From Deltaproteobacteria bacterium (GTDB taxonomy: Bacteria > Myxococcota_A > UBA9042 > DTJE01), in NCBI GenBank assembly GCA_037442805.1, contig JBBIPO010000006.1, positions 1 to 50,311 of the forward strand: DNA of 50,311 nt. Reading direction: 5' to 3'. Every line of letters starts with the position of its first letter. Position 1 is the stretch's first letter. A program made the translations under genes and the position numbers. The notes beneath the pieces are model-generated. The model saw only the letters and a list, made by a program, of their open reading frames with translations, did not search any database and had not been told where the DNA came from. Positions 22,728-35,554 of the stretch are shown here, one piece after another.

Positions 22728-23177
22728 CTAGTCGAGAGGACCTCGTGCGTCAAGGTCCCTCGCCGCTGCGCGGCGGAGGCCTGAATCCGGTGACCGACCT
22801 TTCCGGGCATCGCCCAGGGCGATCAAGAACTTCAAGGTAACGAGGCGCGGGATCGCGTGGCGCTCGAGCAGCCGGTCCGCGATCTCACCGGCGCGGACCT
22901 TGCGGCCCACCATGGCGATGATGTCGGGCATCGCGGCCTCGAGGCGGTCCGCGTACTCGACGATCTCGGCGGGCGTCAGGCGCAACTGGGCCTGCACGGC
23001 CCGATGCAGGTGCAGGTTCAGCCCGGCGAGGACCAGGACGAGCCAGCCGAGCGACACGGGGACCCCGGCCACGCGGACCGAAAACCATTCCAGCCCCACC
23101 ACATGGTCAACCACCAGGACGGCAAGACCCACGACCGCCCACAGGATGCCGAACTGGAGGTACTTGTTCCGGCCCAC
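22728..23177 (-). CDS. Small membrane protein of unknown function (2 N-terminal TM helices plus a soluble C-terminal domain)
   Basis: GTG start at 23177. Hydrophobic segments are FGILWAVVGLAVLVV and VSLGWLVLVLAGLNL. Composition is plausible for a real protein and no family was recognised. Confidence 0.5.
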   Translation of the reverse strand: MGRNKYLQFGILWAVVGLAVLVVDHVVGLEWFSVRVAGVPVSLGWLVLVLAGLNLHLHRAVQAQLRLTPAEIVEYADRLEAAMPDIIAMVGRKVRAGEIADRLLERHAIPRLVTLKFLIALGDARKGRSPDSGLRRAAARDLDARGPLD

Positions 23178-23305
23178 GCATAGAATTGTCGCAAACAGAC
23201 GGGGCTTGTCGCAAGGCGGAAGTCGCCACGAGGCGAAGCCGGGTGGCGCGCTACCCCAACGGGGGCGGGTGTGCTAATCTCGCGGCGTCCTCGTGAGGAC
23301 CGGCC

Positions 23306-24196
23306 GTGAGGGGCACCGGCGGAACGGGTCGGATCGCGCGGGTGGCGCGGGTCATTCTCGTGGGGCTCGCGGCGGTGCCGCCCGGCGCGTACGCGTGGGC
23401 GCAGACCCCCGAGCCCTCCCGGACCCCGGAACAGCGCCTGCGCGAGGCCGAAAACGTTTTCCGCTTCCAGGACTACGCCGCGGCCGAGGCGGCGCTGTAT
23501 CGCCTCTTGCACCCCGAGGTCTTGCTCACGAGCCCGGATGACGTGCTCAAGGCCCGCGAGTACCTCGGGGCGTGCTACTACTGGCTCGGCAACGAGAAGC
23601 GAATGGAGGAGGAGTTCACCGCCCTCCTCATCCTGGCCCCCCATCACCGGCTCGACCCGTTCTACTACCCGGCGGACCTCATCGAGCGCCTGGACCGCCT
23701 GAGGGCGAGGCTCGCGGAACTCCACGTGATCGACCTAGAGGAAGAGGAGAAGCGCGACGACCGGAAGTCGGAATGCCTAGTTCCGAAAGAGACCGTGGTT
23801 TGGCGGTCGCGGTGGGTGTCCTTCATCCCCTTCGGGGTGGGGCAGTTCCAGAACGGGGACACGGTCAAAGGCGCCCTCTTTCTGACGGGAGAGGTGCTGG
23901 CGCTGGGGACCAACGTCGGGTCCTACGTGGCGGCGGAGCGCCTCCGGGGGGCGGACGGGTACTATTCTGCGGGGAGCGCGCGGACGGCGCGGACCCTGCG
24001 GGTGGTGCAGTACGCCTCCCTCGGGGTCCTGGCGGGTCTCGCCATCTGGGGGGTGCTCGATGCGGCCCTTCACCTGGAGCCCGAGACGCGGTCCGTCGAG
24101 ATGGTGCCGTGCCCGGCCGCGCCCGCAGGGGGAGAAGGCGCAAGGGGACCTGGACCGTGGGCGGGGGCTTCCGTGTGCATCCGGGTGGGGAGGTAG
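23306..24196 (+). CDS. Hypothetical exported/membrane protein with an N-terminal TPR-like helical region and C-terminal TM helices
   Basis: GTG at 23306. Signal-like N-terminus ..RVARVILVGLAAVPPGAYAWA. A helical region ..FRFQDYAAAEAALYRLL..AREYLGACYYWLGN.. is TPR-like. TM segments are ALFLTGEVLALGTNVGSYV and YASLGVLAGLAIWGVL. Confidence 0.55.
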   Translation: MRGTGGTGRIARVARVILVGLAAVPPGAYAWAQTPEPSRTPEQRLREAENVFRFQDYAAAEAALYRLLHPEVLLTSPDDVLKAREYLGACYYWLGNEKRMEEEFTALLILAPHHRLDPFYYPADLIERLDRLRARLAELHVIDLEEEEKRDDRKSECLVPKETVVWRSRWVSFIPFGVGQFQNGDTVKGALFLTGEVLALGTNVGSYVAAERLRGADGYYSAGSARTARTLRVVQYASLGVLAGLAIWGVLDAALHLEPETRSVEMVPCPAAPAGGEGARGPGPWAGASVCIRVGR

Positions 24197-24234
24197 GAAG
24201 AGGGGACCATGGGGAACGAGAGCCAAAGGCCCGC

Positions 24235-24330
24235 GGTGGGGATCCGGGGTCGGGGTTCCAGGGTCCGGGGTCCGGCACGGCGCCTGGGCGGACCTGGACC
24301 TGCTCGCGGAACCCGGTCACGGACACCGCC
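24235..24330 (+). repeat. Copy A of a bipartite intergenic repeat: a G-rich heptamer array (GGGGATCC/GGGGTCC-like) followed by a GGTCAC/GGACAC hexamer motif
   Basis: The sequence ggtGGGGatccGGGGtcGGGGttccaGGGtccGGGGtccggca ... ggtcacggacac shares CCGGGGTCCGGCA and GGTCACGGACAC with the elements at 48885-48990 and 50216-50311. Confidence 0.7.
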
Positions 24331-24376
24331 CCCGCCACTGCGACGGACCTGGCCCGCGATTCTTGAGAGGTGACAA

Positions 24377-26176
24377 GTGGCCCAGATCGTAGTGCTTTCC
24401 GGGGACCGACCTCCCAGACGCCATCCGCTGTTCCGGCAGACGACCACGGTGGGGAGCGACGAGGCGTGCGACATCCCGCTCAAGGGAGCGGGGATTCGCC
24501 CCCTGCACGCCGAGATCCGCCTCGAGGGCAGCGTCCACGTCGTCATGCCCCTGGACCGGGATGCAGAAGTCCTGGTGAATGGCCGCAAGGTCAAGCAGGC
24601 GCGGCTCCAGGTGTGGGACGTCCTGCGCGTGGGTGCGGTGACGCTCCTGTACGCCTCCGACGACCTTCCGCTCGAGGCCCGCGACGTGTCCGAACGGCTA
24701 GCGTTCTCGCAACTCGAGTCCCTGTGCGACTTCAGTCGGCGCCTGATGGAGACCCGGGACCTTGACCGGGTGCTCGAGGTCCTGCTCGACGAGACGCTCG
24801 CCCTCACGAAGGCGTCGAAGGGTCTCCTGATCTTCGTGGAGCAGGGCGAGCCGCGCGTGAAGGTCGCCCGCAATGTGGACCGCAAGGACCTTCCCGAAGA
24901 CGAGGCGCTCTTCTCCGAGAGCATCGTGCAGAAGGCGCTCAAGGACGGGCAGCCGCAACTCGTTTCCGACGCGCTTCACAACAAGGAGTTCTCGGGGTGC
25001 ACCTCGGTGATCAACCTGCGCCTGGCCTCGGTCATGTGCGTGCCCCTCAAGGTCGGCGGCGAGACCCTGGGCGTCCTCTACCTCGGGACGGACCGCTTCC
25101 TGGACCTCTTCGACCACGTGATGCTGAAGACGCTGATGGTCTATGCGGCCCAGGCGGCCGTGATCGTCCAGCACGTCCAGTTCCTTGAGTCCCTCGAGCG
25201 GGACAACGCCCGACTCAAAGAGGATCTGAAGGCATCGCGCTTCGGCTCGCTGATCGGGTCGTGCCCGGGGATGCAGGAGGTCTTCAACCGCATCCGGCGC
25301 GTGGCCCCGACCGACGTCCCGGTCCTGATCCTGGGCGAGACCGGGACCGGCAAGGAACTGGTCGCCCGCGAGATCCACGCCCGTAGCCCGCGCTCGGACG
25401 GTCCGTTCGTGGCGATCAACTGCGGCGCGATCCCCGACAACCTCCTCGAGAGCGAGTTGTTCGGCCACGTGCGCGGGGCCTTTACCGGGGCCGTGTCCAC
25501 GACCATCGGCAAGTTTCAGGCGGCCACGGGAGGGACCCTGTTCCTGGACGAGATTGGCGAGCTCCCAATGCCCCTCCAGGTGAAACTGCTGCGCGTCCTC
25601 CAGGACGGGCAGGTCTGCCGCGTGGGGAGCAATCGCCCGGAGCGCGTGGACGTGCGCATCGTCGCGGCGACCAACAAGGACCTGCAGGCCGAGGTACGAG
25701 CCGCCCGGTTCCGGGAAGACCTGTACTACCGCGTCTGCGTCGTGTCCGTCACGCTCCCCCCTCTGCGCGAGCGCGGCGACGACATCGAGATTCTCGCCCA
25801 GTACTTCCTGAACCGCTTCGCCAGGGAACTCGAATCGCCGGCCCGTGGCTTCACGCCCGAGGCGATGCAGGCCATGAAGAAGTACCGCTGGCCGGGCAAC
25901 ATCCGGGAACTCGAGAACCGCCTGCGCAAGGCGGTCCTCTTCGCGGACCGCCCGCAGATCCGGCTGGCGAACCTGGAACTGCCCGAGCGGGACGGTGCCG
26001 AGGAGGAGGTCCTCCCCCTGGTCGTGGCCCGCGAGCGCTTCGAGCGGGAGTACGTGCTGTCGGCGCTGCGGCGCAACCACGGCAATCGCACGAAGACGGC
26101 CCGGGACCTCGGGGTGGACCCCAGGACGATCTTCCGCTACCTGGAACGCGAGCGAGAGGCAGGGCGGGACCTCTGA
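24377..26176 (+). CDS. Sigma-54-dependent transcriptional activator (bacterial enhancer-binding protein) with FHA and GAF sensor domains and a Fis-type HTH
   Basis: GTG at 24377 has GAGAGG upstream. The N-terminal FHA pattern is ..[31 protein letters not shown]... The central AAA+ core has [30 protein letters not shown] (GAFTGA loop), LFLDEIGE and [12 protein letters not shown]. The C-terminal part ..[20 protein letters not shown].. is the HTH. Confidence 0.93.
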
Positions 26177-26184
26177 CGGAATCC

Positions 26185-26856
26185 ATGACACGGAAGTCCG
26201 GGTCTCGACAAGGGTGCGGGGCGGGCTGGCGGGGCGGTTGCCCAGGATCTCCATCATTTCCGGTAGTTATCGGCTTCCCTGCTCTGGTACGGCCCTTGCA
26301 GACGATCCGCCGCGGAGTCCGGCCGCGCGCGGGGACGCGGGCGGCCGGGGCGCGGGCGGACCGGCTCGGAGGATGGTCCTGGCTGGCCGTACTCGCGGCA
26401 TGGGCAGGCGCGGGGTGCCTATGGTCGCCCGACATCCGCGAGAAACCGGAGAGCCGATTTCCTCCCACCATCGAGAGGGCCCTGGTCAGTCCGTCCCCGG
26501 ACCAGGCCGTCGTCCTGACCAACCAGCCGCAGGCCTTCTCGGTCGAGGGGGCGGTGACGGACCCGGACGACGACGTGGAGACGCTCCAGTACGTCTGGTT
26601 TCTGGATTGGCCCCAGAACTGCGAGCCGGGCCAGTGCTACGGGCCGTTTTATTTCCCCGGCCGCGGGGCGAACCAGAAACTGACGGTGAACCCATGCGGT
26701 TTGTTCAAGAAATATCTCGAAACGGATACCTATCACCTGCTGGAGTTGATCGTGACCGACGGGGAGGTCCGGATCGATGTCGAGAAGGGGCGGACCGTGA
26801 CCGGAGGGCACGCGTACGTGGCCTGGTGGCTGGAGAATCGGCTGGCATGTCCGTGA
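26185..26856 (+). CDS. Putative lipoprotein of unknown function; start codon unresolved
   Basis: The frame has real-protein composition from about 26365 onward. A lipobox-like ..WLAVLAAWAGAGC is followed by ..SPDIREKPESRFPPTIERALVSPSPDQ..YVWFLDWPQNCEPGQCYGPFYF... The only canonical in-frame starts are ATG at 26185 and TTG at 26296, which leave 78 and 41 residues before the Cys. Confidence 0.55.
   Translation: MTRKSGSRQGCGAGWRGGCPGSPSFPVVIGFPALVRPLQTIRRGVRPRAGTRAAGARADRLGGWSWLAVLAAWAGAGCLWSPDIREKPESRFPPTIERALVSPSPDQAVVLTNQPQAFSVEGAVTDPDDDVETLQYVWFLDWPQNCEPGQCYGPFYFPGRGANQKLTVNPCGLFKKYLETDTYHLLELIVTDGEVRIDVEKGRTVTGGHAYVAWWLENRLACP
26285..26300 (+). promoter_or_regulatory. Candidate sigma-54 (-24/-12) promoter element TGGTAC-GGCCC-TTGCA
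   Basis: It matches TGGYAC-N5-TTGCW with correct GG-N10-GC spacing, lies about 110 nt downstream of the sigma-54 activator gene, and is in the same orientation as the two lipoprotein genes. It conflicts with the canonical in-frame start codons of the first lipoprotein ORF (see findings). Confidence 0.4.
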
Positions 26857-28694
26857 CAAGGGCGACAGGGGTCCTGGCCTGGTTCCTGGCGACGGTTGCC
26901 GCCTGCTCGGGCGGGGGTGGACCCGGTGGGACCGGGGCCTTGCCGGCGGACCAGGACGCGGCCGCGCCCGGGGCGAGCGCGGGCGCACCGAAGGCCGTGG
27001 GGTGCACGGCCGACGCCGACTGTGGACCCGGGAAAGGCTGCGCCGATGGGATGTGCTGGCCACTCGCGCACGAGGGCCTGACGTACTCCGTGATCGTGAC
27101 CCCCCCCGCGGGGAGCGACCTGATCGCGGACCAGTTCGCGGGCGTGAGCGTGGCGGCCGGGGGGACCCTGGACCTGACCGTGACGGAGCCGGTCGTGGTC
27201 CGGGGCATCGTGGCGTTCATGCCGGAACTGGACGGCGTGGCCGGGGAGGCGGCATCCGGGACCCTCGAACCTGTCGGGGGGCTCCTGGTCGCCACGGCGG
27301 ATGGCCTCGTTCCAGGGGTCCCCTTCCGGTCCGAGGCCTCCGTTCAGGCCCGACAGAAGGTGGGCGAAGACTGGACGTTTTCCCTGCGCCTGATCCCTGG
27401 ACTGTCGTACGCGGTGACCTTCATCCCCTCCGACGACCCGGCGAGAGGCGCGCTCGCGCAACTCCCGACCTACACGTTTTCCGCGCAATTCTCGCAGTCC
27501 GAGTCCGGGTTCCAGGTCCTGATTCCCTCGAAACACGAGTACCTCGCGGCCTCGGTGGTGGGCGTGGTGACCCTCGACGAGGCCGGGACGGAACCGGTGC
27601 GGGGGGCGAGGGTCTCGACGGTGGGCGTGGGGATGAAGGGGACCACGGCGGTCACGGACGACAAGGGCGTGTTCCGGGTCGTCGCGCCGCCCGGCGCGGG
27701 GCCCCTGACCTTGAGGGTCGAGCCCGGCAAGGGGCTGCCGCCGTTTCCCGTGCGGGAGTTCGTATACGCGAGCGGGGTCCAGGAACTGATGTCCGAGGCG
27801 ACGCCGAGGTTCGTCGTCGGTCCCGTTCCGCCCCTGCGCGAGGTCCTGGTCCAGGTCTTCGCCGTGGAGGGCCAGGCCCTGCTCCCTGTCCCTCAGGCGC
27901 GGGTCGAGGCCGACGGTCAGGCTGGCGGCGGAACGGCCTCCGGGTATTCGGTGACCGGCGGGGACGGGGTCGCGAGGCTGTCGTTGCTCGAGGGCGTGTA
28001 CGCCCTCGCGGTGCTCCCACCGGAGGGGTCCCCTTACGCGGCCCGCATGAGCACGCTCGACCTGTCGGCGAACCAGGACACGACCGTGTTCCATGTCCCT
28101 TTGTCCCGGCGCGCGAGGGTCGTAGGTCGAGTCGTGCGGGACGACGATGGTGCGCCCGTCTCGGGCGCGGTCGTGACCCTCCAGAGCCATCGGATCACAG
28201 CCTTCGAGGGGACCGCGCTCGCGTCGTACGAGGTCACGGCGAGCGCGGTGACCGCGGACGACGGGGTGTTCGAGATGGTCCTGGACCCCGGCGTGTACGC
28301 GATGACTGTGATCCCGCCGGCCTCCACCGGGCTTGCGCGGTTCGGACAGCCGGAGGTGGACCTGAGCGGCGGCGACGCCCAGGTCACGGTGCGACTGGTG
28401 GGCGGGGCCCTGGTGCGGGGGAGCGTTTTCGCCGGGGGCACGGGGGCTCTCGTGGTGGGGGCCGAGGTCCAGCTCGTCTTCGAAGTGGAACAGGCGGACG
28501 GGGCGCCGACCTTCGTGGGCACGGTGTTCGGATCGGCCGTCCAGACCGCGGGCACCGCGATCACCGGGCCCGGAGGTCGCTTCGCCGTGATCGTCCCGGA
28601 CACGCGGACCCGCGCGGACTTCGAGGACGGTTCCGACCAGGGCGGGGCGGGATTCGGGCTCCCCGCCGTGGAGGTCCTGCCGACCTCACCCTGA
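26847..28694 (+). CDS. Lipoprotein with repeated carboxypeptidase-regulatory-like (CarboxypepD_reg / Ig-like beta-sandwich) domains
   Basis: ATG at 26847 overlaps the upstream stop by 10 nt. Signal and lipobox are MSVTRATGVLAWFLATVAAC. Repeated segments of the type ..V.G.V.D..G.PV.GA.V.......T.DDG.F......G.Y.L.V.P.. occur (e.g. RVVGRVVRDDDGAPVSGAVVTLQS..TADDGVFEMVLDPGVYAMTVIPP). The 899-aa ORF on the track has a spurious N-terminal extension. Confidence 0.7.
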   Translation: MSVTRATGVLAWFLATVAACSGGGGPGGTGALPADQDAAAPGASAGAPKAVGCTADADCGPGKGCADGMCWPLAHEGLTYSVIVTPPAGSDLIADQFAGVSVAAGGTLDLTVTEPVVVRGIVAFMPELDGVAGEAASGTLEPVGGLLVATADGLVPGVPFRSEASVQARQKVGEDWTFSLRLIPGLSYAVTFIPSDDPARGALAQLPTYTFSAQFSQSESGFQVLIPSKHEYLAASVVGVVTLDEAGTEPVRGARVSTVGVGMKGTTAVTDDKGVFRVVAPPGAGPLTLRVEPGKGLPPFPVREFVYASGVQELMSEATPRFVVGPVPPLREVLVQVFAVEGQALLPVPQARVEADGQAGGGTASGYSVTGGDGVARLSLLEGVYALAVLPPEGSPYAARMSTLDLSANQDTTVFHVPLSRRARVVGRVVRDDDGAPVSGAVVTLQSHRITAFEGTALASYEVTASAVTADDGVFEMVLDPGVYAMTVIPPASTGLARFGQPEVDLSGGDAQVTVRLVGGALVRGSVFAGGTGALVVGAEVQLVFEVEQADGAPTFVGTVFGSAVQTAGTAITGPGGRFAVIVPDTRTRADFEDGSDQGGAGFGLPAVEVLPTSP

Positions 28695-28767
28695 AGGTTT
28701 CGTCGCGGGCGGTCATCGGCTACAATCGGCGCGTTTTCGCGGCGGGAGTCCGCGGTCGGAGGTCGGC

Positions 28768-29781
28768 ATGGGGTCCAGGGAGCTCGTCGTGGCCGTGGTC
28801 GGGGCCACGGGCGTCGTCGGTCGCGAGTTCCTTCTGATCCTCGAGGAGCGGCAGTTTCCCGTCTCGGAAGTGCGGCTGTACGCGTCGGGCCGTTCCGCGG
28901 GCGAGGCGCTGTTGTTTCGGGGACGGGAGGTGGTCGTCCAGAACCTGGCCCAGGCGGACTTCAAGGGGGTGGATCTCGTCCTGTCGTCGCCCGGGGCCGC
29001 GGTCAGCCGGGAGTTCGCGCCGCGCGCCGTGGCCGCCGGGGCCGTGGTCGTGGACAACTCGAGCGCCTTCCGGATGGAACCCGACGTCCCCCTGGTCGTC
29101 CCCGAGGTGAACCCGGAGGCGGCACGCCGGCATCGCGGAATCATCGCGAACCCGAACTGCTCGACCATCCAGCTGGTCGTGGTTCTGTGGCCGATTCACC
29201 GGGCCTTCGGGCTGCGGCGGGTCGTGGTCTCGACCTACCAGGCCGTGAGCGGCGCGGGCCACAAGGCGATGGAAGAACTGATGTCCCAGTGCGTGGCCCT
29301 CCTGAACCAGAGGCCGGTGCGGATCGAGAAGTTCCCCCACCAGATTGCCTTCAACGTACTGCCCCACATTGACGTCTTCGAAGAGGACGGCTCGACGCGC
29401 GAGGAGGCCAAGGTCGTCCGGGAATCGCGCAAGATCATGGGGTTGCCAGACCTGCGCATCGTGGTGACGGCGGTCCGCGTGCCGGTGATGAACGGGCATT
29501 CCGAGGCCGTGTACGTTGAGACCGAGCGTCCGTGTTCGCCCCAGGCCGTGCGCGAGGTCCTGGCCGCGGCCCCGGGCCTCGTAGTGTACGACGACCCGGC
29601 CGAGGCCGCGTATCCCATGCCGCTGCTCGCGTCCGGGCGCGACGAGGTGTTCGTCGGGCGCATCCGGCGGGACGCCAGCGTCGAGAACGGGGTGGCCCTG
29701 TGGGTCTGCGCGGACAACCTGCGGAAGGGCGCGGCCCTGAACGCGGTCCAGATCGCGGAGGTGCTCGAACGGGGAGGATGA
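28768..29781 (+). CDS. asd: Aspartate-semialdehyde dehydrogenase
   Basis: 337 aa. Conserved blocks: ..VAVVGATGVVGREFL.. (NADP fold), ..IANPNCSTIQLV.. (active-site Cys), ..STYQAVSGAG.., ..RVPVMNGHSEAV... Confidence 0.95.
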   Translation: MGSRELVVAVVGATGVVGREFLLILEERQFPVSEVRLYASGRSAGEALLFRGREVVVQNLAQADFKGVDLVLSSPGAAVSREFAPRAVAAGAVVVDNSSAFRMEPDVPLVVPEVNPEAARRHRGIIANPNCSTIQLVVVLWPIHRAFGLRRVVVSTYQAVSGAGHKAMEELMSQCVALLNQRPVRIEKFPHQIAFNVLPHIDVFEEDGSTREEAKVVRESRKIMGLPDLRIVVTAVRVPVMNGHSEAVYVETERPCSPQAVREVLAAAPGLVVYDDPAEAAYPMPLLASGRDEVFVGRIRRDASVENGVALWVCADNLRKGAALNAVQIAEVLERGG

Positions 29782-29897
29782 CCGTTTGGCCGGACGCACG
29801 AGGGATGCGTGGACAAAATGACACGCGGGGGGCGGTCCATCGGGCGGTCGCATCGGCGAGCGGCCCACGCCTGGCGCGCGCGAGAGGGTTCGCGCCG

Positions 29898-29913
29898 TGG
29901 CACGATCATTGCT
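29898..29913 (+). promoter_or_regulatory. Sigma-54 promoter: TGGCAC-GATCA-TTGCT, a consensus -24/-12 element
   Basis: This is an exact match to TGGCACG-N4-TTGCW. It lies 52 nt upstream of the GTG at 29965, and the GGAGG RBS at 29951-29955 lies between the predicted transcription start (about 29924) and that start codon. A sigma-54 activator gene sits 3.7 kb upstream. Confidence 0.75.
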
Positions 29914-29964
29914 TGGCCAGACCGCCGGAGCCGCGCCTGGACCTTGAATCGGAGGTCGTCATTC

Positions 29965-31104
29965 GTGAGCGATAGCAGAAAGACCCGATGGGGCCTGTGG
30001 GTCCGAGGGATGTTCGCGGTCGGACTGGTCGTGGTCACGCGTCCCCTCCTCGCCGACATCAGCGGGTTCCAGTTCAATGGAATCGACCCGGTCGGCGGCG
30101 TGGACTTGAACGACCGCATCGGAAAGACGTCAGCATCGAGCGACCACCGGATCAACATCGAGGACTGCAAGGCGTACACAGGCAGTTCCATCGAGATCAT
30201 GTGGTCGCTGACCCGCGTCCCCACGTCCGGGACGAAGTACGCGGTGAAGATGAGCAAGCCGGGGGGCTCGTGCTCCACGTCGAGCCTGAGCGACCTCGGT
30301 GGATCATGCTACGAAGAATTTCTGGTGTCCGAAAAAACGCTCGAGACTTATACCAACGTGAAGTTTTCCGTGCCTCTGGACCCGTTGATGGGCGGGGATT
30401 GCAACGCGGGCACGGACAAGGTCACGAACATCTATATCATGCTGGACGAAGCGGGGATCGTCAGTTCGCAGACCATCGCGTTTCGCGTGGACCTCCAGCC
30501 CCCGAAGGCCCCGACCATGGACGAGCCGAAGGAGGGGGACCAGAACGTCCTCGTCACGTGGACGGACTCAGCCAACGCGGACGAGACGGGCCTCCGGTAC
30601 CGGGTCTACTGGAGCGCGAGCCCCTTCGATGACTCGAACCGCTCCGAGGCCAGCCGGTCGGACGCGGTCACCGGAAAATCCTACCGGGTGTCAGGGCTCG
30701 ACAACGGCGTCGAGTACTGGTTCGGCGTCGTCGCCGTGGACGAGAACGACAACGAGAGCCCACTGTCCGCGGTGACGAGCGCGATGCCGGTGCCGTCGTA
30801 CGACTTGTTCGAATATTACAAGGAGGCAGGAGGCCGCGAATCCGGGGGGTTCTGCTTCATCGCCACCGCGGCGTACGGGAGCCCGATGGCCCGGGACGTC
30901 GTGACCCTTCGCCAGTTCCGGGACCGGGTCCTGATGCGTTCCTGGGTCGGCCGGTCGTTCGTGACGCTTTACTACGCGCTGAGTCCGGCGCTGGCGCGAG
31001 CGATCGAGGGGCGCGACGACCTAAAGGCCGCGACCCGGGGCCTCCTGTGGCCCCTGGTGCAGGCGGCGCGCCTGTTTGTTCCAGAGGGCGGGGACGCGCG
31101 ATGA
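29965..31104 (+). CDS. Secreted surface protein: N-terminal unknown domain, a fibronectin type III domain, and a C-terminal CFIATAAYGS-type (CFI-box-like) module
   Basis: GTG at 29965 has GGAGG 9 nt upstream and is in frame with the longer track ORF starting at 29809. Signal-like segment is WGLWVRGMFAVGLVVVTRPLLA. The FN3 pattern is ..PPKAPTMDEPKEGDQNVLVTWTDS..YRVYWSA..YRVSGLDNGVEYWFGVVAVDENDNESP... The C-terminus is GGFCFIATAAYGSPMARDVVTLRQFRDRVL..FVTLYYALSPALA... Confidence 0.75.
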   Translation: MSDSRKTRWGLWVRGMFAVGLVVVTRPLLADISGFQFNGIDPVGGVDLNDRIGKTSASSDHRINIEDCKAYTGSSIEIMWSLTRVPTSGTKYAVKMSKPGGSCSTSSLSDLGGSCYEEFLVSEKTLETYTNVKFSVPLDPLMGGDCNAGTDKVTNIYIMLDEAGIVSSQTIAFRVDLQPPKAPTMDEPKEGDQNVLVTWTDSANADETGLRYRVYWSASPFDDSNRSEASRSDAVTGKSYRVSGLDNGVEYWFGVVAVDENDNESPLSAVTSAMPVPSYDLFEYYKEAGGRESGGFCFIATAAYGSPMARDVVTLRQFRDRVLMRSWVGRSFVTLYYALSPALARAIEGRDDLKAATRGLLWPLVQAARLFVPEGGDAR

Positions 31105-31823
31105 CGGAGGCGGCTGTGAAACCATCTCTCGCGTTTTCCGGGTTCGTGGTCGCCCTGCTCGTCGCCGGTCGGACGTGGGCCGAATCGCCGCGGGACATGG
31201 TCCTCGAAATCAAGTTCGGTCCGTTCCGTCCCTCCATTGATTCGGAGTTTAGGGGCCAGGCCAGCCCGTACAAGGACGTCATGGGGGGCGGGAGCGTCCT
31301 GATGACGCAGGTCGAGTACGAGTACGAGTTCTACAATCGCGTCGGGGTGGTCGCGGTCGGGGCATCGCTCGGGTACGCGCGGGACAAGGGAAAGGCGCGA
31401 CTCGCGGACGGGCAGGCGTCCAACGATTCGACGACGTTCCACCTGGTCCCGCTGTCCTTGTCGGCGGTCTATCGCTTCGATTATCTGGCGCAGGCTTTCC
31501 GCATTCCGTTCGTGCCTCACGTCAAGGCCGGGTTCGATTACTACCTCTGGTGGATCACCAACGCGGTGGGGAGCGTGGCCCGGGCCAGGGACGGGTCCGT
31601 GGGGCAGGGCGGGACCTTCGGGGGACACGTCACGTTCGGCCTCGCGTTCCACATGGACTTCCTGTCCCCGGACATGGCCCAGACCTTCGACGCCGACGTC
31701 GGCGTCAACAACACCTATCTGTTCGCGGAATACGTCCTGTCCTGGGTCAACGACTTCGGGTCTTCCCACAGTCTTGACCTGTCCTCGCGCACCTTCCTGT
31801 TCGGGATCGCCTTCGAGTTTTGA
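31101..31823 (+). CDS. Outer-membrane beta-barrel protein, translationally coupled to the FN3/CFI-box protein. From memory it resembles the MXAN_2562-type OMP family of Myxococcota.
   Basis: ATG at 31101 overlaps the upstream stop as ATGA. Signal peptide is MTEAAVKPSLAFSGFVVALLVAGRTWA. Alternating beta-strand pattern, and a C-terminal ..FLFGIAFEF with terminal Phe. Confidence 0.7.
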   Translation: MTEAAVKPSLAFSGFVVALLVAGRTWAESPRDMVLEIKFGPFRPSIDSEFRGQASPYKDVMGGGSVLMTQVEYEYEFYNRVGVVAVGASLGYARDKGKARLADGQASNDSTTFHLVPLSLSAVYRFDYLAQAFRIPFVPHVKAGFDYYLWWITNAVGSVARARDGSVGQGGTFGGHVTFGLAFHMDFLSPDMAQTFDADVGVNNTYLFAEYVLSWVNDFGSSHSLDLSSRTFLFGIAFEF

Positions 31824-32585
31824 ATGGGCGCGCGGAGGCCAGGGGACAGCGGAGTCGCCGTGGTCATCCCGGCCTACGAGGCCGACGGCAGGCTCTCGCG
31901 CACCCTGTCCCGCGTCCCGGAGTGGGTCACGGTCCGCATCGTGGTGGACGACGGGTCCGCGACCCCGGTCCGCCTGCCGCCCGCTTTGCCCCCCGTAGTC
32001 GTGGTCCGCCACGACCGGAACCTCGGGGTCGGGGCCGCGATCCTGACCGGCTATCGGGAGGCGCGGCGGCTCGGGGCCCGGGTCGCGGCGGTCATGGCGG
32101 CGGACGGGCAGATGGACCCGGACGACCTCGCCAACGTGGTCGCCCCGGTCCTGGAGGGCCGCGCCGACTACGTGACCGGGGACCGTCTGTCCCATCCCGA
32201 CTGCCCGCGGGTCATGCCGCTCGTTCGCCGGCTCGGCAACCTCGGGTTGACCTTTCTGACCCGGCTCGTGACCGGGCGCTGGGACCTGATGGACTCCCAG
32301 TGCGGGTATTCGGCCCTCGACCTCGGCCTTCTGGAGCGCCTTCCTCTCGACTGGGTCTATCCTCGGTACGGGTTTCCGAACGACCTGCTCGCCGCGGTCG
32401 TCGGGGCCGGGGGACGGGTCGCGCAGGTCACGGTCCGCCCGATCTATGCCGGCGAACCGTCGCGCATCCGGCCGGTCGTGGCCCTCTGGGTCTATCCGTT
32501 GGTGATCGCGAGGGGCCTCGCGGTGCGGGCCGTCGCGTGGGCGCGGGCGAGGAGGTCGGGGCCAGGGGAGCCATGCGCGTCCTGA
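31824..32585 (+). CDS. Family 2 glycosyltransferase (dolichyl/polyprenyl-phosphate sugar synthase-like)
   Basis: ATG follows immediately after the OMP stop (TGAATG). GT2 motifs: ..VAVVIPAYEA.., ..VVDDGSAT.., ..AADGQMDPDD... Confidence 0.8.
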   Translation: MGARRPGDSGVAVVIPAYEADGRLSRTLSRVPEWVTVRIVVDDGSATPVRLPPALPPVVVVRHDRNLGVGAAILTGYREARRLGARVAAVMAADGQMDPDDLANVVAPVLEGRADYVTGDRLSHPDCPRVMPLVRRLGNLGLTFLTRLVTGRWDLMDSQCGYSALDLGLLERLPLDWVYPRYGFPNDLLAAVVGAGGRVAQVTVRPIYAGEPSRIRPVVALWVYPLVIARGLAVRAVAWARARRSGPGEPCAS

Positions 32586-33730
32586 TGCTCACGAGTTCGT
32601 ATCCGTGTCGCGAGGGGGACTGGCGCGGGGGGTTCGTGCGCGACCTGGGCCGGGCCCTGGCACGCGAGGGACTGCGCGTGACGGTCGCGGCCCCGAGGCC
32701 CCCGGGTCTGTTCCGCCCGCCCGTCGTCCGGGAGGGGGACCCCGTGACCCTGTGGCTGCCGTCGTGGTTGCCCACGCGCGCCCGGGGGTTCCACGGCGTG
32801 GGGCTCGCGGCGAACCTCCGGCGCGACCCGGTCGCATGGGTGAATCTCGCGCCGTTCCTGGGGGCCTATGCCCTGGAGGCCCGCGTTCACGCGGCCCTCG
32901 CGGACGTGGTGGTGGCGCACTGGCTCCTGCCGATGGGGCTGGTCGGGGCCGTGGTTTCGCGATGGGCCGGGCGTCCGTTCGGGGTCGTGGCGCACTCCGG
33001 GCCACCGTGGCCAGTCCCCTCGTGGCTCGTGCGGTCCGTGGTGACCCGCGCCGCGTCGGTCGCGTGCGTGTCGGAGTCGGTGCGCGGCGAGGTCGAGGCG
33101 CGGGGGGGAGTGGGGGGGCGCGTCGAGGTCCTGCCCCTGGGCATTGATCTGCGGGCGAGCGCGGAACCGCGCCCACTGGATGGTCGTCCCTTGCGGCTCC
33201 TGTTCGTGGGCCGGCTGGTGCCCGGGAAGGGCGCGGACCTGCTGGTGCGCGCAGCCGCTCGGATGGCCGGGGGCCCGCCCATTCGTTGGACCGTGGTCGG
33301 GGACGGCCCGGAACGGGCGCGCTTGGAGGGCGCTGCTGGCCCGGGCGTGCGGTTCCTGGGCGAGTGCGACTCCGAGCGGGCGAGAGCCGAGATGGCGCTG
33401 CACGACGCGCTCGTGATCCCTTCCAGGACGGGGTGGTCCGGGCGGGCGGAGGGCCTGCCGAGGGTCCTGTTCGAGGCGTGGGCGTGCGGTCTGCCGGTCC
33501 TGGCCGCGGACACGGGGGGGCTCGGGGAGTCGGTCCGGCGGCACGGCGGTGGTGTCCTGTTTCCGCCAGAGGACGTGGAGGGTCTGGTGCGCGCGGTCGA
33601 GGCGTTCCGTGGCGACGCGGCGTTGCGGTCCAGATTGCGTCGCGGGGCCCTGGATGCCGCCTCGCGTCATGCCTGGGAGCGCCTGGGTCCGCGCTGGGCC
33701 CGGTGGGTCCGCGGGCTCGCGGCCGCATGA
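32573..33730 (+). CDS. Family 4 (GT-B, RfaG-like) glycosyltransferase
   Basis: ATG at 32573 overlaps the GT2 stop by 13 nt. N-terminus MRVLMLTSSYP...GGF. C-terminal motifs are ..LLFVGRLVPGKGADLL.. and ..PSR...EGLPRVLFEAWACGLPVLAADTGGLGE.. (E-x7-E-type). Confidence 0.85.
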   Translation: MRVLMLTSSYPCREGDWRGGFVRDLGRALAREGLRVTVAAPRPPGLFRPPVVREGDPVTLWLPSWLPTRARGFHGVGLAANLRRDPVAWVNLAPFLGAYALEARVHAALADVVVAHWLLPMGLVGAVVSRWAGRPFGVVAHSGPPWPVPSWLVRSVVTRAASVACVSESVRGEVEARGGVGGRVEVLPLGIDLRASAEPRPLDGRPLRLLFVGRLVPGKGADLLVRAAARMAGGPPIRWTVVGDGPERARLEGAAGPGVRFLGECDSERARAEMALHDALVIPSRTGWSGRAEGLPRVLFEAWACGLPVLAADTGGLGESVRRHGGGVLFPPEDVEGLVRAVEAFRGDAALRSRLRRGALDAASRHAWERLGPRWARWVRGLAAA

Positions 33731-33781
33731 GACCGTGCTGCCTCGTGCCCTCGTTGCCGGAAAGACGCGGCGCACCCTGGC

Positions 33782-35554
33782 CTACGGGCAGTCCATCTGG
33801 TCCGTGTCCCGGAAGCGCACAACGACCCCGAACGAGGGGTCCCACGAGGGGCTCGGGTCCTGGCCGACGATCAGGCCCTCGTCGCACCGGACGCCAGGTC
33901 GGAAGGCGGCGGCCAGGAGGTGGGTGCTCGAGTTCGCGAAGAACGGCGCGGTCCCCCAGTTCGCGATGTGCTGCGCCACGAAGTCGCTCGCGGAGAAGGC
34001 CGCTCCCTTCGGACGATGCTCCACGAGGTGATAGGTCACCGGGAACCCGTAGGGCTGGCCGAGGACCAGGGCCCGCCGTCCATCGGGCCGGAAGGCCACG
34101 TCGAGGATGCCGCTCCCGGTCTCGGTCAGGTACGCCTTGCTCCACGTCCCGTCGAACACGTACAGGACATTGGACGACGTCCCGGACACGAGGCCGTACC
34201 CGCCACCCGGTCGCCAAGCCGCGCGCCCCATGTTTCCGAACCCGCCGAGGCTCCCCGGCGTGGGCACGACCTCGTGGCTGACGAGGTACCACAACTTCGC
34301 GTCCACGCCGTTCCACCCGTGCACGAGGAGGGCCGCGGGACCGGCCGGCAGGAGCCCCGCCGGGACCCAGACCACGTCCGACACGCCGGCGGAGGCGTTG
34401 TAGCCCTTGAAGTTCGTGGTGGTCCCGGTGATCGGGTCGAACAGGCAAAGATAGTTTACATTGTAACTACCTGACTGGCCCACAATGATTGCGTTTTGGG
34501 CGGACTCGTCGAACCGGATGGACACGAAGCGGGCCGGCTGGCGGGCGTCCTCGAGTTCCACGAGGGACTGGCTTCCGTCGGCCACCCGGAACACGTGCCC
34601 CACCCCTGCCGGGTCGTGGCCCACGACGAAGGCGTCGCCCGTGGGATGGAAGGCCACGCGGGTCGGGGTGACCGCCCCCGTGGACCCGATGGAGGCGAGG
34701 GCCTGCATGGGCTCGGCGTCCGGGTCGAAGCGGACCACGGCCCCCAGACGGTTCAGCAGCACGGCGTAGCGACCCTCGGGGTGCCAGGCGACGTCCACGA
34801 AGTCGTCCCGAAACCAGGCGTTGGGGACCGCGTCGTAGGTCAGGCGGTGGGAATCGGGACCGCACAGGAGGGTGTCCAGGGTGCAGTCCGACCGGCAGGA
34901 CAGGGTGCCGGGGCCGTAACCGAGCGACTCGCAGGTCGTTTCGCCCAGGTGCGGGCCGTCGCATTCCTCTCCAGGGTCCAGGAGGCCGTTGTTGCACCCG
35001 ACCCACGAGACCTCCCGGACCTCGCCAGAGTCGTCTCCCGCGAGGTCCTGCGTCGCCTCAGTGACATCGGGTCGTGGGTCCGCGTCCAGGTCCGGGGGGC
35101 TGCCCTTGTCCCACCATGCGTCAGGCGGCCCGTCCTCGCCGGGCGAGTCCTTCGGCGCGGACGCCGGGTCCTCGGGGCCGCTCGCGTCGTCCGCGGGCAA
35201 GTCCGGCATGGGCTCGTTCCCGGTCGTCGGTTCGTGCGCCGGGTCCGCCGTCCCCGGGTCCTGAGGGTCCACCGGAGTGTCGCGGCTCCCGACGTCCGAA
35301 GGGAACTCCCCCAGGTCCGCGGTGATCTGGAACGGCACGCACCGGCCGTCCTGGCAGGACGCCTCCGGGGCGCAATCCACGATCACCCGGGACGATACGC
35401 CGTCGGAAAGGCATTCGCGCAGGAGGTCTCCATCGCAGAACCGGGCCCCGGCGGGGCATGTCCCGCGGCCCGCGCCGCCACGGCACATCAGCGTCCCCGC
35501 GAGGAGGACCGCCACGACCGGCATCACGCACCCGAGTCTGAACGGGCTCGCCAT
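33782..35554 (-). CDS. Secreted protein: Cys-rich head, acidic Pro/Asp-rich linker, a CxxG..GEECD Myxococcus-type cysteine-rich repeat, and a C-terminal beta-propeller-like domain
   Basis: ATG at 35554 (MASPFRLGCVMPVVAVLLAGTLMC..) gives a signal peptide; the 672-aa track ORF has a spurious extension. ..GCNNGLLDPGEECDGPHLGETTCESLGYGPGTLSCRSDCTLD.. matches the CGNG..GEECD repeat. The C-terminal 330 aa shows repeated ..V.[FW].P.G....V.. blades. Confidence 0.65.
   Translation of the reverse strand: MASPFRLGCVMPVVAVLLAGTLMCRGGAGRGTCPAGARFCDGDLLRECLSDGVSSRVIVDCAPEASCQDGRCVPFQITADLGEFPSDVGSRDTPVDPQDPGTADPAHEPTTGNEPMPDLPADDASGPEDPASAPKDSPGEDGPPDAWWDKGSPPDLDADPRPDVTEATQDLAGDDSGEVREVSWVGCNNGLLDPGEECDGPHLGETTCESLGYGPGTLSCRSDCTLDTLLCGPDSHRLTYDAVPNAWFRDDFVDVAWHPEGRYAVLLNRLGAVVRFDPDAEPMQALASIGSTGAVTPTRVAFHPTGDAFVVGHDPAGVGHVFRVADGSQSLVELEDARQPARFVSIRFDESAQNAIIVGQSGSYNVNYLCLFDPITGTTTNFKGYNASAGVSDVVWVPAGLLPAGPAALLVHGWNGVDAKLWYLVSHEVVPTPGSLGGFGNMGRAAWRPGGGYGLVSGTSSNVLYVFDGTWSKAYLTETGSGILDVAFRPDGRRALVLGQPYGFPVTYHLVEHRPKGAAFSASDFVAQHIANWGTAPFFANSSTHLLAAAFRPGVRCDEGLIVGQDPSPSWDPSFGVVVRFRDTDQMDCP

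Follow-up and report, generated by a model that had tools for sequence, protein, structure and literature searches.

The window analysed here, the whole 50,311-nucleotide stretch of DNA, is contig C6 of a metagenome-assembled genome (G000; 3.6 Mb, about 70% GC) whose relatives are labelled Myxococcota. It carries two sets of genes on the plus strand, each with an element of the sigma-54 -24/-12 promoter type, P1 or P2 (Table 1). Unit 1 consists of a gene for an exported or membrane protein (gene U), a gene for a bacterial enhancer-binding protein (bEBP) having FHA and GAF sensor domains, P1 and the genes for two lipoproteins, A and B. Unit 2 consists of P2 and an operon encoding an FN3 surface protein, an outer-membrane beta-barrel and two glycosyltransferases (GT2 and GT4), and is preceded by asd. 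The original prediction had joined the units by proposing that the FHA-GAF bEBP switches on P2, 3.7 kb downstream. The comparisons described below lead us to favor, with some reservation, another reading in which two separate sigma-54 units adjoin one another in this lineage only, and in which the FHA-GAF protein is not the likely activator of P2.

Genes were called with our own codon-trained caller (GC1/GC2/GC3), by which about 89% of G000 is coding, and sigma-54 sites were scored with a simple -24/-12 weight matrix of our own that has a maximum of 19.7 bits. G000 has a single copy of rpoN, a 529-aa open frame on contig C81 (PF04552, 216 bits), together with about 17 full-length bEBPs, one of which is encoded within the window. 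Scanning window positions 23000-34000 for terminators and sigma-70 promoters gave nothing informative.

Table 1 Features of the two units, their promoters and the related loci elsewhere in G000. Positions without a contig name are those of the window; UAS, upstream activating sequence.
Feature	Position	Strand	Basis or remark
Gene U, exported/membrane protein; TPR-like N-terminal part, C-terminal hydrophobic segments	23342..24196	+	Orthologue upstream of bEBP in 20/20
FHA-GAF-AAA+(sigma-54)-HTH_8 bEBP	24377..26176	+	Pfam domains; FHA non-canonical
Candidate UAS of P1, 14-mer TGACACGGAAGTCC, class TGAYM-N4-WGTCN	26186..26199	+	Conserved motif
P1, sigma-54 -24/-12 element TGGTACGGCCCTTGCA	26285..26300	+	18.2 bits, conserved
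Gene A, small Cys-containing lipoprotein; lipobox Cys codon 26416-26418	26296..26856	+	Start codon ambiguous
Gene B, 615-aa lipoprotein; signal MSVTRATGVLAWFLATVAAC, CarboxypepD_reg-type beta-sandwich domains	26847..28694	+	Pfam
asd, aspartate-semialdehyde dehydrogenase	28768..29781	+	Pfam
Candidate UAS of P2, 13-mer GGACAAAATGACA, class TGNCA-N3-TGNCA (family consensus TGACAAAATGGCA)	29811..29823	+	Conserved motif
P2, consensus sigma-54 promoter TGGCACGATCATTGCT	29898..29913	+	Exact match; predicted start about 29923-29924
Shine-Dalgarno sequence GGAGG	29951..29955	+	9 nt before GTG 29965
FN3 surface protein, CFI-box C-terminal domain; related to MXAN_2561 (SgmI) family	29965..31104	+	Profile matches
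MXAN_2562-family outer-membrane beta-barrel	31101..31823	+	NF040596, 236 bits (cut-off 100)
GT2 glycosyltransferase	31860..32585	+	Family match
GT4 glycosyltransferase	32573..33730	+	ATG 32573 overlaps GT2 gene end
Type II secretion operon, gspC-D-E-F-G and further genes	C75:3-10710	-	Pfam; sigma-54 site 10616
REC-AAA+-HTH bEBP, NtrC-family response regulator	C119:9477-10835		PF00072 2e-29, PF00158 2e-70, PF02954 (HTH_8) 1e-11

Sigma-54 elements and genes of the two units

P2 scores 19.3 bits and is among the top six sites of G000. Its GG and GC dinucleotides lie 10 bp apart within the sequence TGGCAC-N5-TTGCW, and the element is intergenic, co-oriented with the operon and 51 nt from the GTG codon of the FN3 gene. 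Exact matches to TGGCAC-N5-TTGCW number eight on the two strands of the genome. The shorter form TGGCAC-N5-TTGC occurs nine times versus three and five times for control patterns having N4 and N6 spacers, a count that taken alone is weak. Of more weight is where the best sites fall: 10 of the 13 sites scoring at least 17 bits are intergenic, co-oriented and at most 300 nt upstream of a gene, and one is intragenic. Of 21 related genomes, 19-20 likewise have a P2-type element about 40-100 nt ahead of their FN3 orthologue. At these orthologous positions TGGCACG and TTGCT are kept with GG and GC fixed, and the spacer is unconstrained. The positions of the top sites and the conservation upstream of FN3 orthologues argue that P2 is a genuine sigma-54 promoter of the FN3/barrel/GT2/GT4 operon. 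This part of the original prediction holds, both for the exact consensus promoter (in a genome that has rpoN) and for its correct placement ahead of the GGAGG and GTG of that operon.

The FN3 protein matches the CFI_box_CTERM profile with a score of 94.5 (cut-off 40), and its similarity to NF045522, with a score of 88, falls below the cut-off of 150. The gene order asd-FN3-barrel is conserved across the class, and in relatives asd travels with the FN3 module and not with the bEBP module.

The bEBP of unit 1 is an intact protein and, as had been proposed, the only bEBP of the window and the bearer of both sensor domains. Pfam detects FHA (6e-10, residues 23-86), GAF_2 (2e-12, with the GAF domain at residues 126-265), Sigma54_activat (PF00158, 6e-72, residues 292-458), AAA_lid_14 and HTH_8 (residues 552-587), and the sequence carries Walker A (GETGTGKE), Walker B and GAFTGA motifs. 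The original prediction also held that the FHA domain reads phosphothreonine (pThr) and the GAF domain a small ligand. Assignment of the first domain to the FHA family (PF00498) is sound, although its matches to solved FHA domains are weak, the closest by sequence being those of afadin and kinesin. The reader role is unsupported because the residues that contact pThr are replaced. Upon alignment with FhaA (3po8) the motifs GR, VSRRH and NSTNG become GS, IRPLH and DRDAE, such that the window protein has Ser, Arg and Ala in place of the contacting Arg, Ser and Asn. None of the 20 orthologues has the Ser or the Asn of the pocket, and about half retain the Arg (GR). The bEBPs of the five genomes of genus g4 keep GR, which the window protein has lost. 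We speculate that the FHA domain is perhaps a docking module, possibly for the product of the always-adjacent gene U. The GAF domain is a candidate small-ligand sensor.

The set U-bEBP-lipoprotein A-lipoprotein B is kept in all 20 relatives examined. Gene U has no Pfam or NCBIfam match. A homologue search with lipoprotein A returned 11 close relatives and no Pfam match, and a structure prediction based on these 11 homologues had a mean pLDDT (predicted local distance difference test) of 51.5, too poor for a fold search. The start of gene B overlaps the stop of gene A by 10 nt.

P1 sits 109 nt past the bEBP stop codon, and 16 of 21 genomes, three of them from other families of the same class, have a site of the same type (14-19.5 bits) about 100-290 nt past the orthologous bEBP gene. 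All family genomes carry a 14-mer, of the form TGACA-N4-TGTCA or TGATC-N4-TGTCN, in the interval from the bEBP stop codon to P1; it is a perfect palindrome in genomes G020 and G030. In the window this 14-mer begins 10 nt past the stop codon and 99 nt upstream of the T of the P1 -24 box. Family genomes keep the latter distance at 98-101 nt, more distant genomes have 84-92 nt, and the intervening sequence is unconserved. Given this arrangement, the FHA-GAF bEBP would bind its own 14-mer just past its stop codon and activate RNA polymerase-sigma-54 waiting at P1, about 99 bp downstream. The FHA-GAF protein most likely serves P1, directly behind its own gene.

A genome-wide matrix search for the 14-mer was too degenerate to be of use, giving 402 matches that were mostly in coding sequence. 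One intergenic candidate in G000, at C24:12791-12921, consists of the 14-mer-like sequence TGACAAGAAAGTCG (minus strand) located 102-115 nt upstream of the sigma-54-like sequence TGGCCCGGACCTTGCA (14.4 bits), and precedes an rpoD-like sigma factor gene. The sigma-54-like site is weak, and we judged this match probably due to chance. Covariation of the bEBP recognition helix with the left half of the 14-mer (TGACA or TGATC) was uninformative because the helix is nearly invariant.

Linkage, upstream motifs and type II secretion

If the FHA-GAF bEBP were the cognate activator of P2, conserved linkage or a shared upstream site would be expected. Only in G000 and G002 are the bEBP gene and the FN3 operon on one contig, and only in these two does asd-FN3-barrel-GT2-GT4 follow U-bEBP-A-B. 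In ten other relatives the two lie on different contigs, some of which span hundreds of kilobases. Since the units are unlinked in at least 10 relatives, the 3.7-kb proximity in the window is a lineage-specific juxtaposition.

The upstream elements of the two promoters likewise fall into exclusive classes. The 14-mer was found at 15 of 16 P1 sites and at none of 21 P2 sites (background 0.011 per 200 nt). Conversely, the 13-mer was found at none of the 16 P1 sites and at 20 of the 21 P2 sites (background 0.0015 per 200 nt), the single P2 site counted as lacking it being that of the window, which has one mismatch. The 13-mer lies 67-120 nt before the -24 element across the genomes having P2, and 87 nt upstream of the T of the -24 box in the window. 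A direct comparison of window positions 26180-26280 and 29700-29890 for shared repeats, the check put forward with the original prediction, yielded only the 8-mer ATGACACG, which corresponds to one half-site and is not significant (P about 0.22). The original proposal that the bEBP drives P2, which drew on proximity, thus lost its footing: linkage is confined to G000 and G002, the bEBP has its own P1 immediately downstream, the two promoters have upstream elements of different classes, and the P2-type 13-mer tracks a different bEBP together with the type II secretion operon.

The latter association came from a genome-wide search of G000 with the 13-mer matrix, in which the two best matches were that at P2 and one at C75:10694-10706. 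On contig C75 a perfect 13-mer (TGACAAAATGGCA) is followed at about 80 nt by a sigma-54 site (TGGTACGGGCATTGCA, 18.2 bits) and then by gspC. Pfam identified a secretin with an N0 domain (GspD), T2SSF and T2SSG among the products of this operon; GspC gave only weak PDZ and T2SSC matches, and GspE was assigned from sequence alone. Divergent from the gsp operon is a gene encoding a 1358-aa IPT/TIG-like lipoprotein.

The pattern TGACAWWWTGRCA matched 37 times in related genomes, with matches in 18 of 23 and typically two in each, as compared to 0-2 matches per strand per genome for the reversed pattern used as a control. Fifteen matches were at FN3 promoters and 16 at gspC promoters, each of the latter with a sigma-54 site of 14-18 bits; one was upstream of the gene for a bEBP having an N-terminal REC domain (REC-bEBP) and five were unassigned. 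Within each family genome the 13-mer of P2 has essentially one other place of occurrence, ahead of the sigma-54 promoter of gspC-D-E-F-G. The occurrence of the 13-mer at both promoters places P2 in a small conserved regulon with the type II secretion operon, and P2 most likely serves to couple the expression of an adhesin-like surface protein to that of its secretion machine.

The REC-bEBP came to light in genome G024, where the 13-mer is upstream of a REC-bEBP gene located directly before gspC. The protein encoded on C119 of G000 is the orthologue of this G024 protein (61% identity versus 40-50% for other paralogues). At the level of the class, the REC-bEBP gene is directly upstream of gspC on the same strand in nine genomes and divergent from it within 2.7 kb in two more. 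In eight of these nine genomes the REC-bEBP-gspC intergenic region contains one or two 13-mers followed by a sigma-54 site, and the same class-level genomes carry 13-mers in their asd-FN3 intergenic regions. In several, 13-mers and a sigma-54 site also precede the REC-bEBP gene itself, which suggests autoregulation. The REC-bEBP is present in 51 of 61 genomes across the phylum, and downstream of its gene 10 of 30 phylum-level loci have, in this order, tandem 13-mers spaced by 40 bp, a sigma-54-like site and a gspC homologue. The best 120 matches in a homologue search with the REC-bEBP were all from Myxococcota genomes, with no Myxococcus entry among them.

Thus, the regulator gene adjoins promoters that bear the motif and the motif is common to all of these promoters, evidence that consists of linkage and motif only. 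We infer that the REC-bEBP, not the FHA-GAF protein, is the likely P2 activator. The REC-bEBP would recognize the 13-mer and activate both the gspC operon and P2, so that the surface protein and its expected export machinery would be switched on together. In the family to which G000 belongs the REC-bEBP gene has left the neighborhood of gspC. In G007 (C56:63480-70262) it is found 1.2 kb past the lipoprotein B gene, and in G016 (C115:49671-61881) 9 kb downstream of the FHA-GAF bEBP module. The two activator genes are thus neighbors in both of these genomes although the motifs of their targets differ.

Alternative assignments of P1 and P2

Several observations weigh against the division into two units outlined above. 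The 13-mer of the window deviates from consensus at its first base (a single mismatch). Both upstream elements share the half-site TGACA and both contain ATGACACG, and the recognition helices of the two bEBPs are alike (PRTIFRYLE versus TRTIYRKLE), so cross-recognition is possible. The REC-bEBP gene adjoins neither gspC nor the FN3 gene in the family of G000, and its assignment to P2 draws on more distant genomes. P1 is absent or degenerate in genus g4, whose five genomes keep U-bEBP-A-B and have no recognizable P1 or 14-mer. Finally, the TTG of the P1 -12 box is the only canonical in-frame start for gene A before the lipobox Cys in several genomes, including G000.

The FHA-GAF bEBP could instead activate P2, alone or in addition to P1, such that the adjacency in G000 and G002 would be functional. 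In keeping with this proposal, the P1 and P2 upstream regions share one half-site, the bEBP gene and P2 are on the same strand 3.7 kb apart, and the arrangement recurs in G002. Moreover, the P2 region is slightly off consensus in the two genomes where the units are adjacent, having GGACA in the 13-mer of G000 and a weak -24/-12 element (13.2 bits) in G002, which could mean altered control. We nevertheless consider activation of P2 by the FHA-GAF protein unlikely, because at least 10 relatives have retained both units and both promoters without the synteny. The full sites also differ in spacing (N4 versus N3), and in 37 promoter regions the two classes never overlapped. The 7-mers common to both upstream regions are not significant, and phylum-wide the 13-mer is associated with gspC and a different bEBP. 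A different objection is that the 13-mer might be the site of a factor other than a bEBP (a repressor, a CRP/Fnr-like protein or an architectural protein), in which case the P2 activator would be among the other roughly 15 bEBPs. In favor of this reading, the REC-bEBP gene is unlinked to either promoter in the family of G000, and the TTGACA within the motif resembles a sigma-70 -35 box, with CAGAAT found 17 nt downstream in genus g3. Such a -10-like sequence is not general, however, and the motif lies 67-120 nt upstream of the -24 box in nearly all cases, which is the usual UAS range. It is palindromic, as expected for the site of a dimeric HTH_8 protein, and in many genomes two copies spaced by 40 bp stand in tandem directly behind the REC-bEBP gene, ahead of a sigma-54 promoter. 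We therefore regard a non-bEBP factor as quite improbable and retain the REC-bEBP as the likely activator of P2.

The overlap of P1 with the start of gene A raises a separate question. The TTG of the -12 box (26296) is in frame with gene A, and the element is in frame in all 12 family genomes. The span from TTG to Cys measures exactly 26 codons in 7 of 13 genomes, even though the peptide that it encodes is unconserved, and the indels between the P1 element and the lipobox Cys are all multiples of three. A P1 transcript, which would start about 12 nt past the GC, would lack the TTG codon of gene A, and this lowers our confidence that P1 simply drives A and B. P1 could be a sigma-54 site that is embedded in the opening codons of gene A and either forms a roadblock or serves gene B only, with gene A read from upstream starts; we hold this to be a real but rather doubtful possibility. 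On that supposition the true output of the FHA-GAF bEBP might lie elsewhere, an idea that we view with the same degree of doubt. The frame relationships favor the embedded site, as does the finding that most genomes are without a usable start codon past the predicted transcription start, and intragenic sigma-54 sites are described as common in E. coli (PMC4591121). However, P1 is conserved at the nucleotide level, with GCA or GTA plus TTG, which are rare codons at 70% GC, and a free spacer, a pattern that fits sigma-54 binding. The 14-mer is held at a fixed 99 nt. In addition, in-frame ATG or GTG codons occur at the predicted +1 to +4 in G016, G012 and G030, compatible with a leaderless mRNA, and none is present in G000. 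Our preferred assignment thus remains that of P1 as the promoter served by the FHA-GAF protein.

Two side observations concern the same region. In G016 the in-frame ATG falls exactly at the predicted +1. The gene A signal-peptide region of the window has a 45-nt G+C-rich in-frame insertion (about 26331-26375) relative to G001 of the same genus, which extends the pre-Cys peptide from 26 to 41 residues.

Relation to known sigma-54 systems

Classical units composed of a bEBP, a UAS and a sigma-54 promoter include NtrC-glnAp2, NifA-nifH and PspF-pspA. Unit 1 resembles these in its GG-N10-GC promoter, in the palindromic site that precedes this promoter by about 70-120 bp and in having the activator gene beside the target, and its bEBP is likewise an AAA+ protein with a GAFTGA motif and a C-terminal Fis-type HTH (helix-turn-helix) domain. 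It departs from them in its FHA plus GAF sensor, rather than REC or GAF alone, in the absence of pThr-binding residues from the FHA domain, and in the overlap of the P1 -12 box with the sole canonical start of the first downstream gene. In 2005, Jelsbak, Givskov and Kaiser reportedly described FHA-type enhancer-binding proteins from M. xanthus, in which an N-terminal FHA domain is fused to a sigma-54 AAA+ domain. The window bEBP has the same FHA-AAA+ fusion and differs in the added GAF domain and in the missing pThr-contacting residues.

For the REC-bEBP the closest parallel is Nla4, an NtrC-like activator of M. xanthus. The nla4 gene is MXAN_2516 (PMC11980068) and primers for gspD have been named 2514 (PMC12475490), and this numbering puts nla4 beside the gsp genes. 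Orthologues of the C119 protein directly upstream of gspC in many Myxococcota match this order (nla4, MXAN_2516; gspC/gspD, MXAN_2515/2514), whereas in the family of G000 the REC-bEBP gene lies away from gspC. By this gene-order argument the REC-bEBP is probably the counterpart of Nla4. Nla4 has been described through ppGpp, growth and development phenotypes (PMC7910581, PMC11980068). Inactivation of nla4 impairs growth (PMC7910581), and gspD is reported to be essential in M. xanthus (PMC12475490). We found no literature report linking Nla4 to type II secretion or to SgmI.

SgmI (MXAN_2561) is an FN3 surface protein of M. xanthus that is co-transcribed with the barrel protein MXAN_2562, and its MYXO-CTERM tag is presumed to route it to the surface via type II secretion (bioRxiv 10.64898/2026.08.28.747804). 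Surface proteins that bear MYXO-CTERM require the type II secretion system (PMC11980579). The window pair is alike in that the gene for an FN3 surface protein (with similarity to NF045522) precedes that for a small outer-membrane barrel (NF040596, 236 bits). It is unlike the M. xanthus pair in that the FN3 protein has a CFI-box C terminus rather than MYXO-CTERM and remains below the NF045522 cut-off, and in that two glycosyltransferase genes follow. The sigma-54 promoter with its 13-mer found here was not seen in the literature consulted on the SgmI/MXAN_2562 pair.

These parallels suggest a wider, tentative hypothesis that we think possible but would not expect to hold: that type II secretion and the SgmI-like/barrel operons of the Myxococcota form one ancient sigma-54 regulon, controlled by an Nla4-type regulator acting through the 13-bp TGNCA-N3-TGNCA enhancer. 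If it is true, the essentiality of gspD could partly explain both the indispensable sigma-54 of M. xanthus and the poor growth of nla4 mutants. Co-regulation of SgmI-like cargo with the secretion machine also makes sense. On the reading favored here, nearest-neighbor assignment of sigma-54 activators to promoters would be wrong at this locus, which matters for annotation. The comparison yields two compact cis-elements, one enhancer joining a secretion machine to its likely cargo operon and a concrete candidate set of targets for an Nla4-like regulator. Set beside the classical systems, both circuits are ordinary in kind, and it is the regulon joining type II secretion with an SgmI-like operon that is modestly new.

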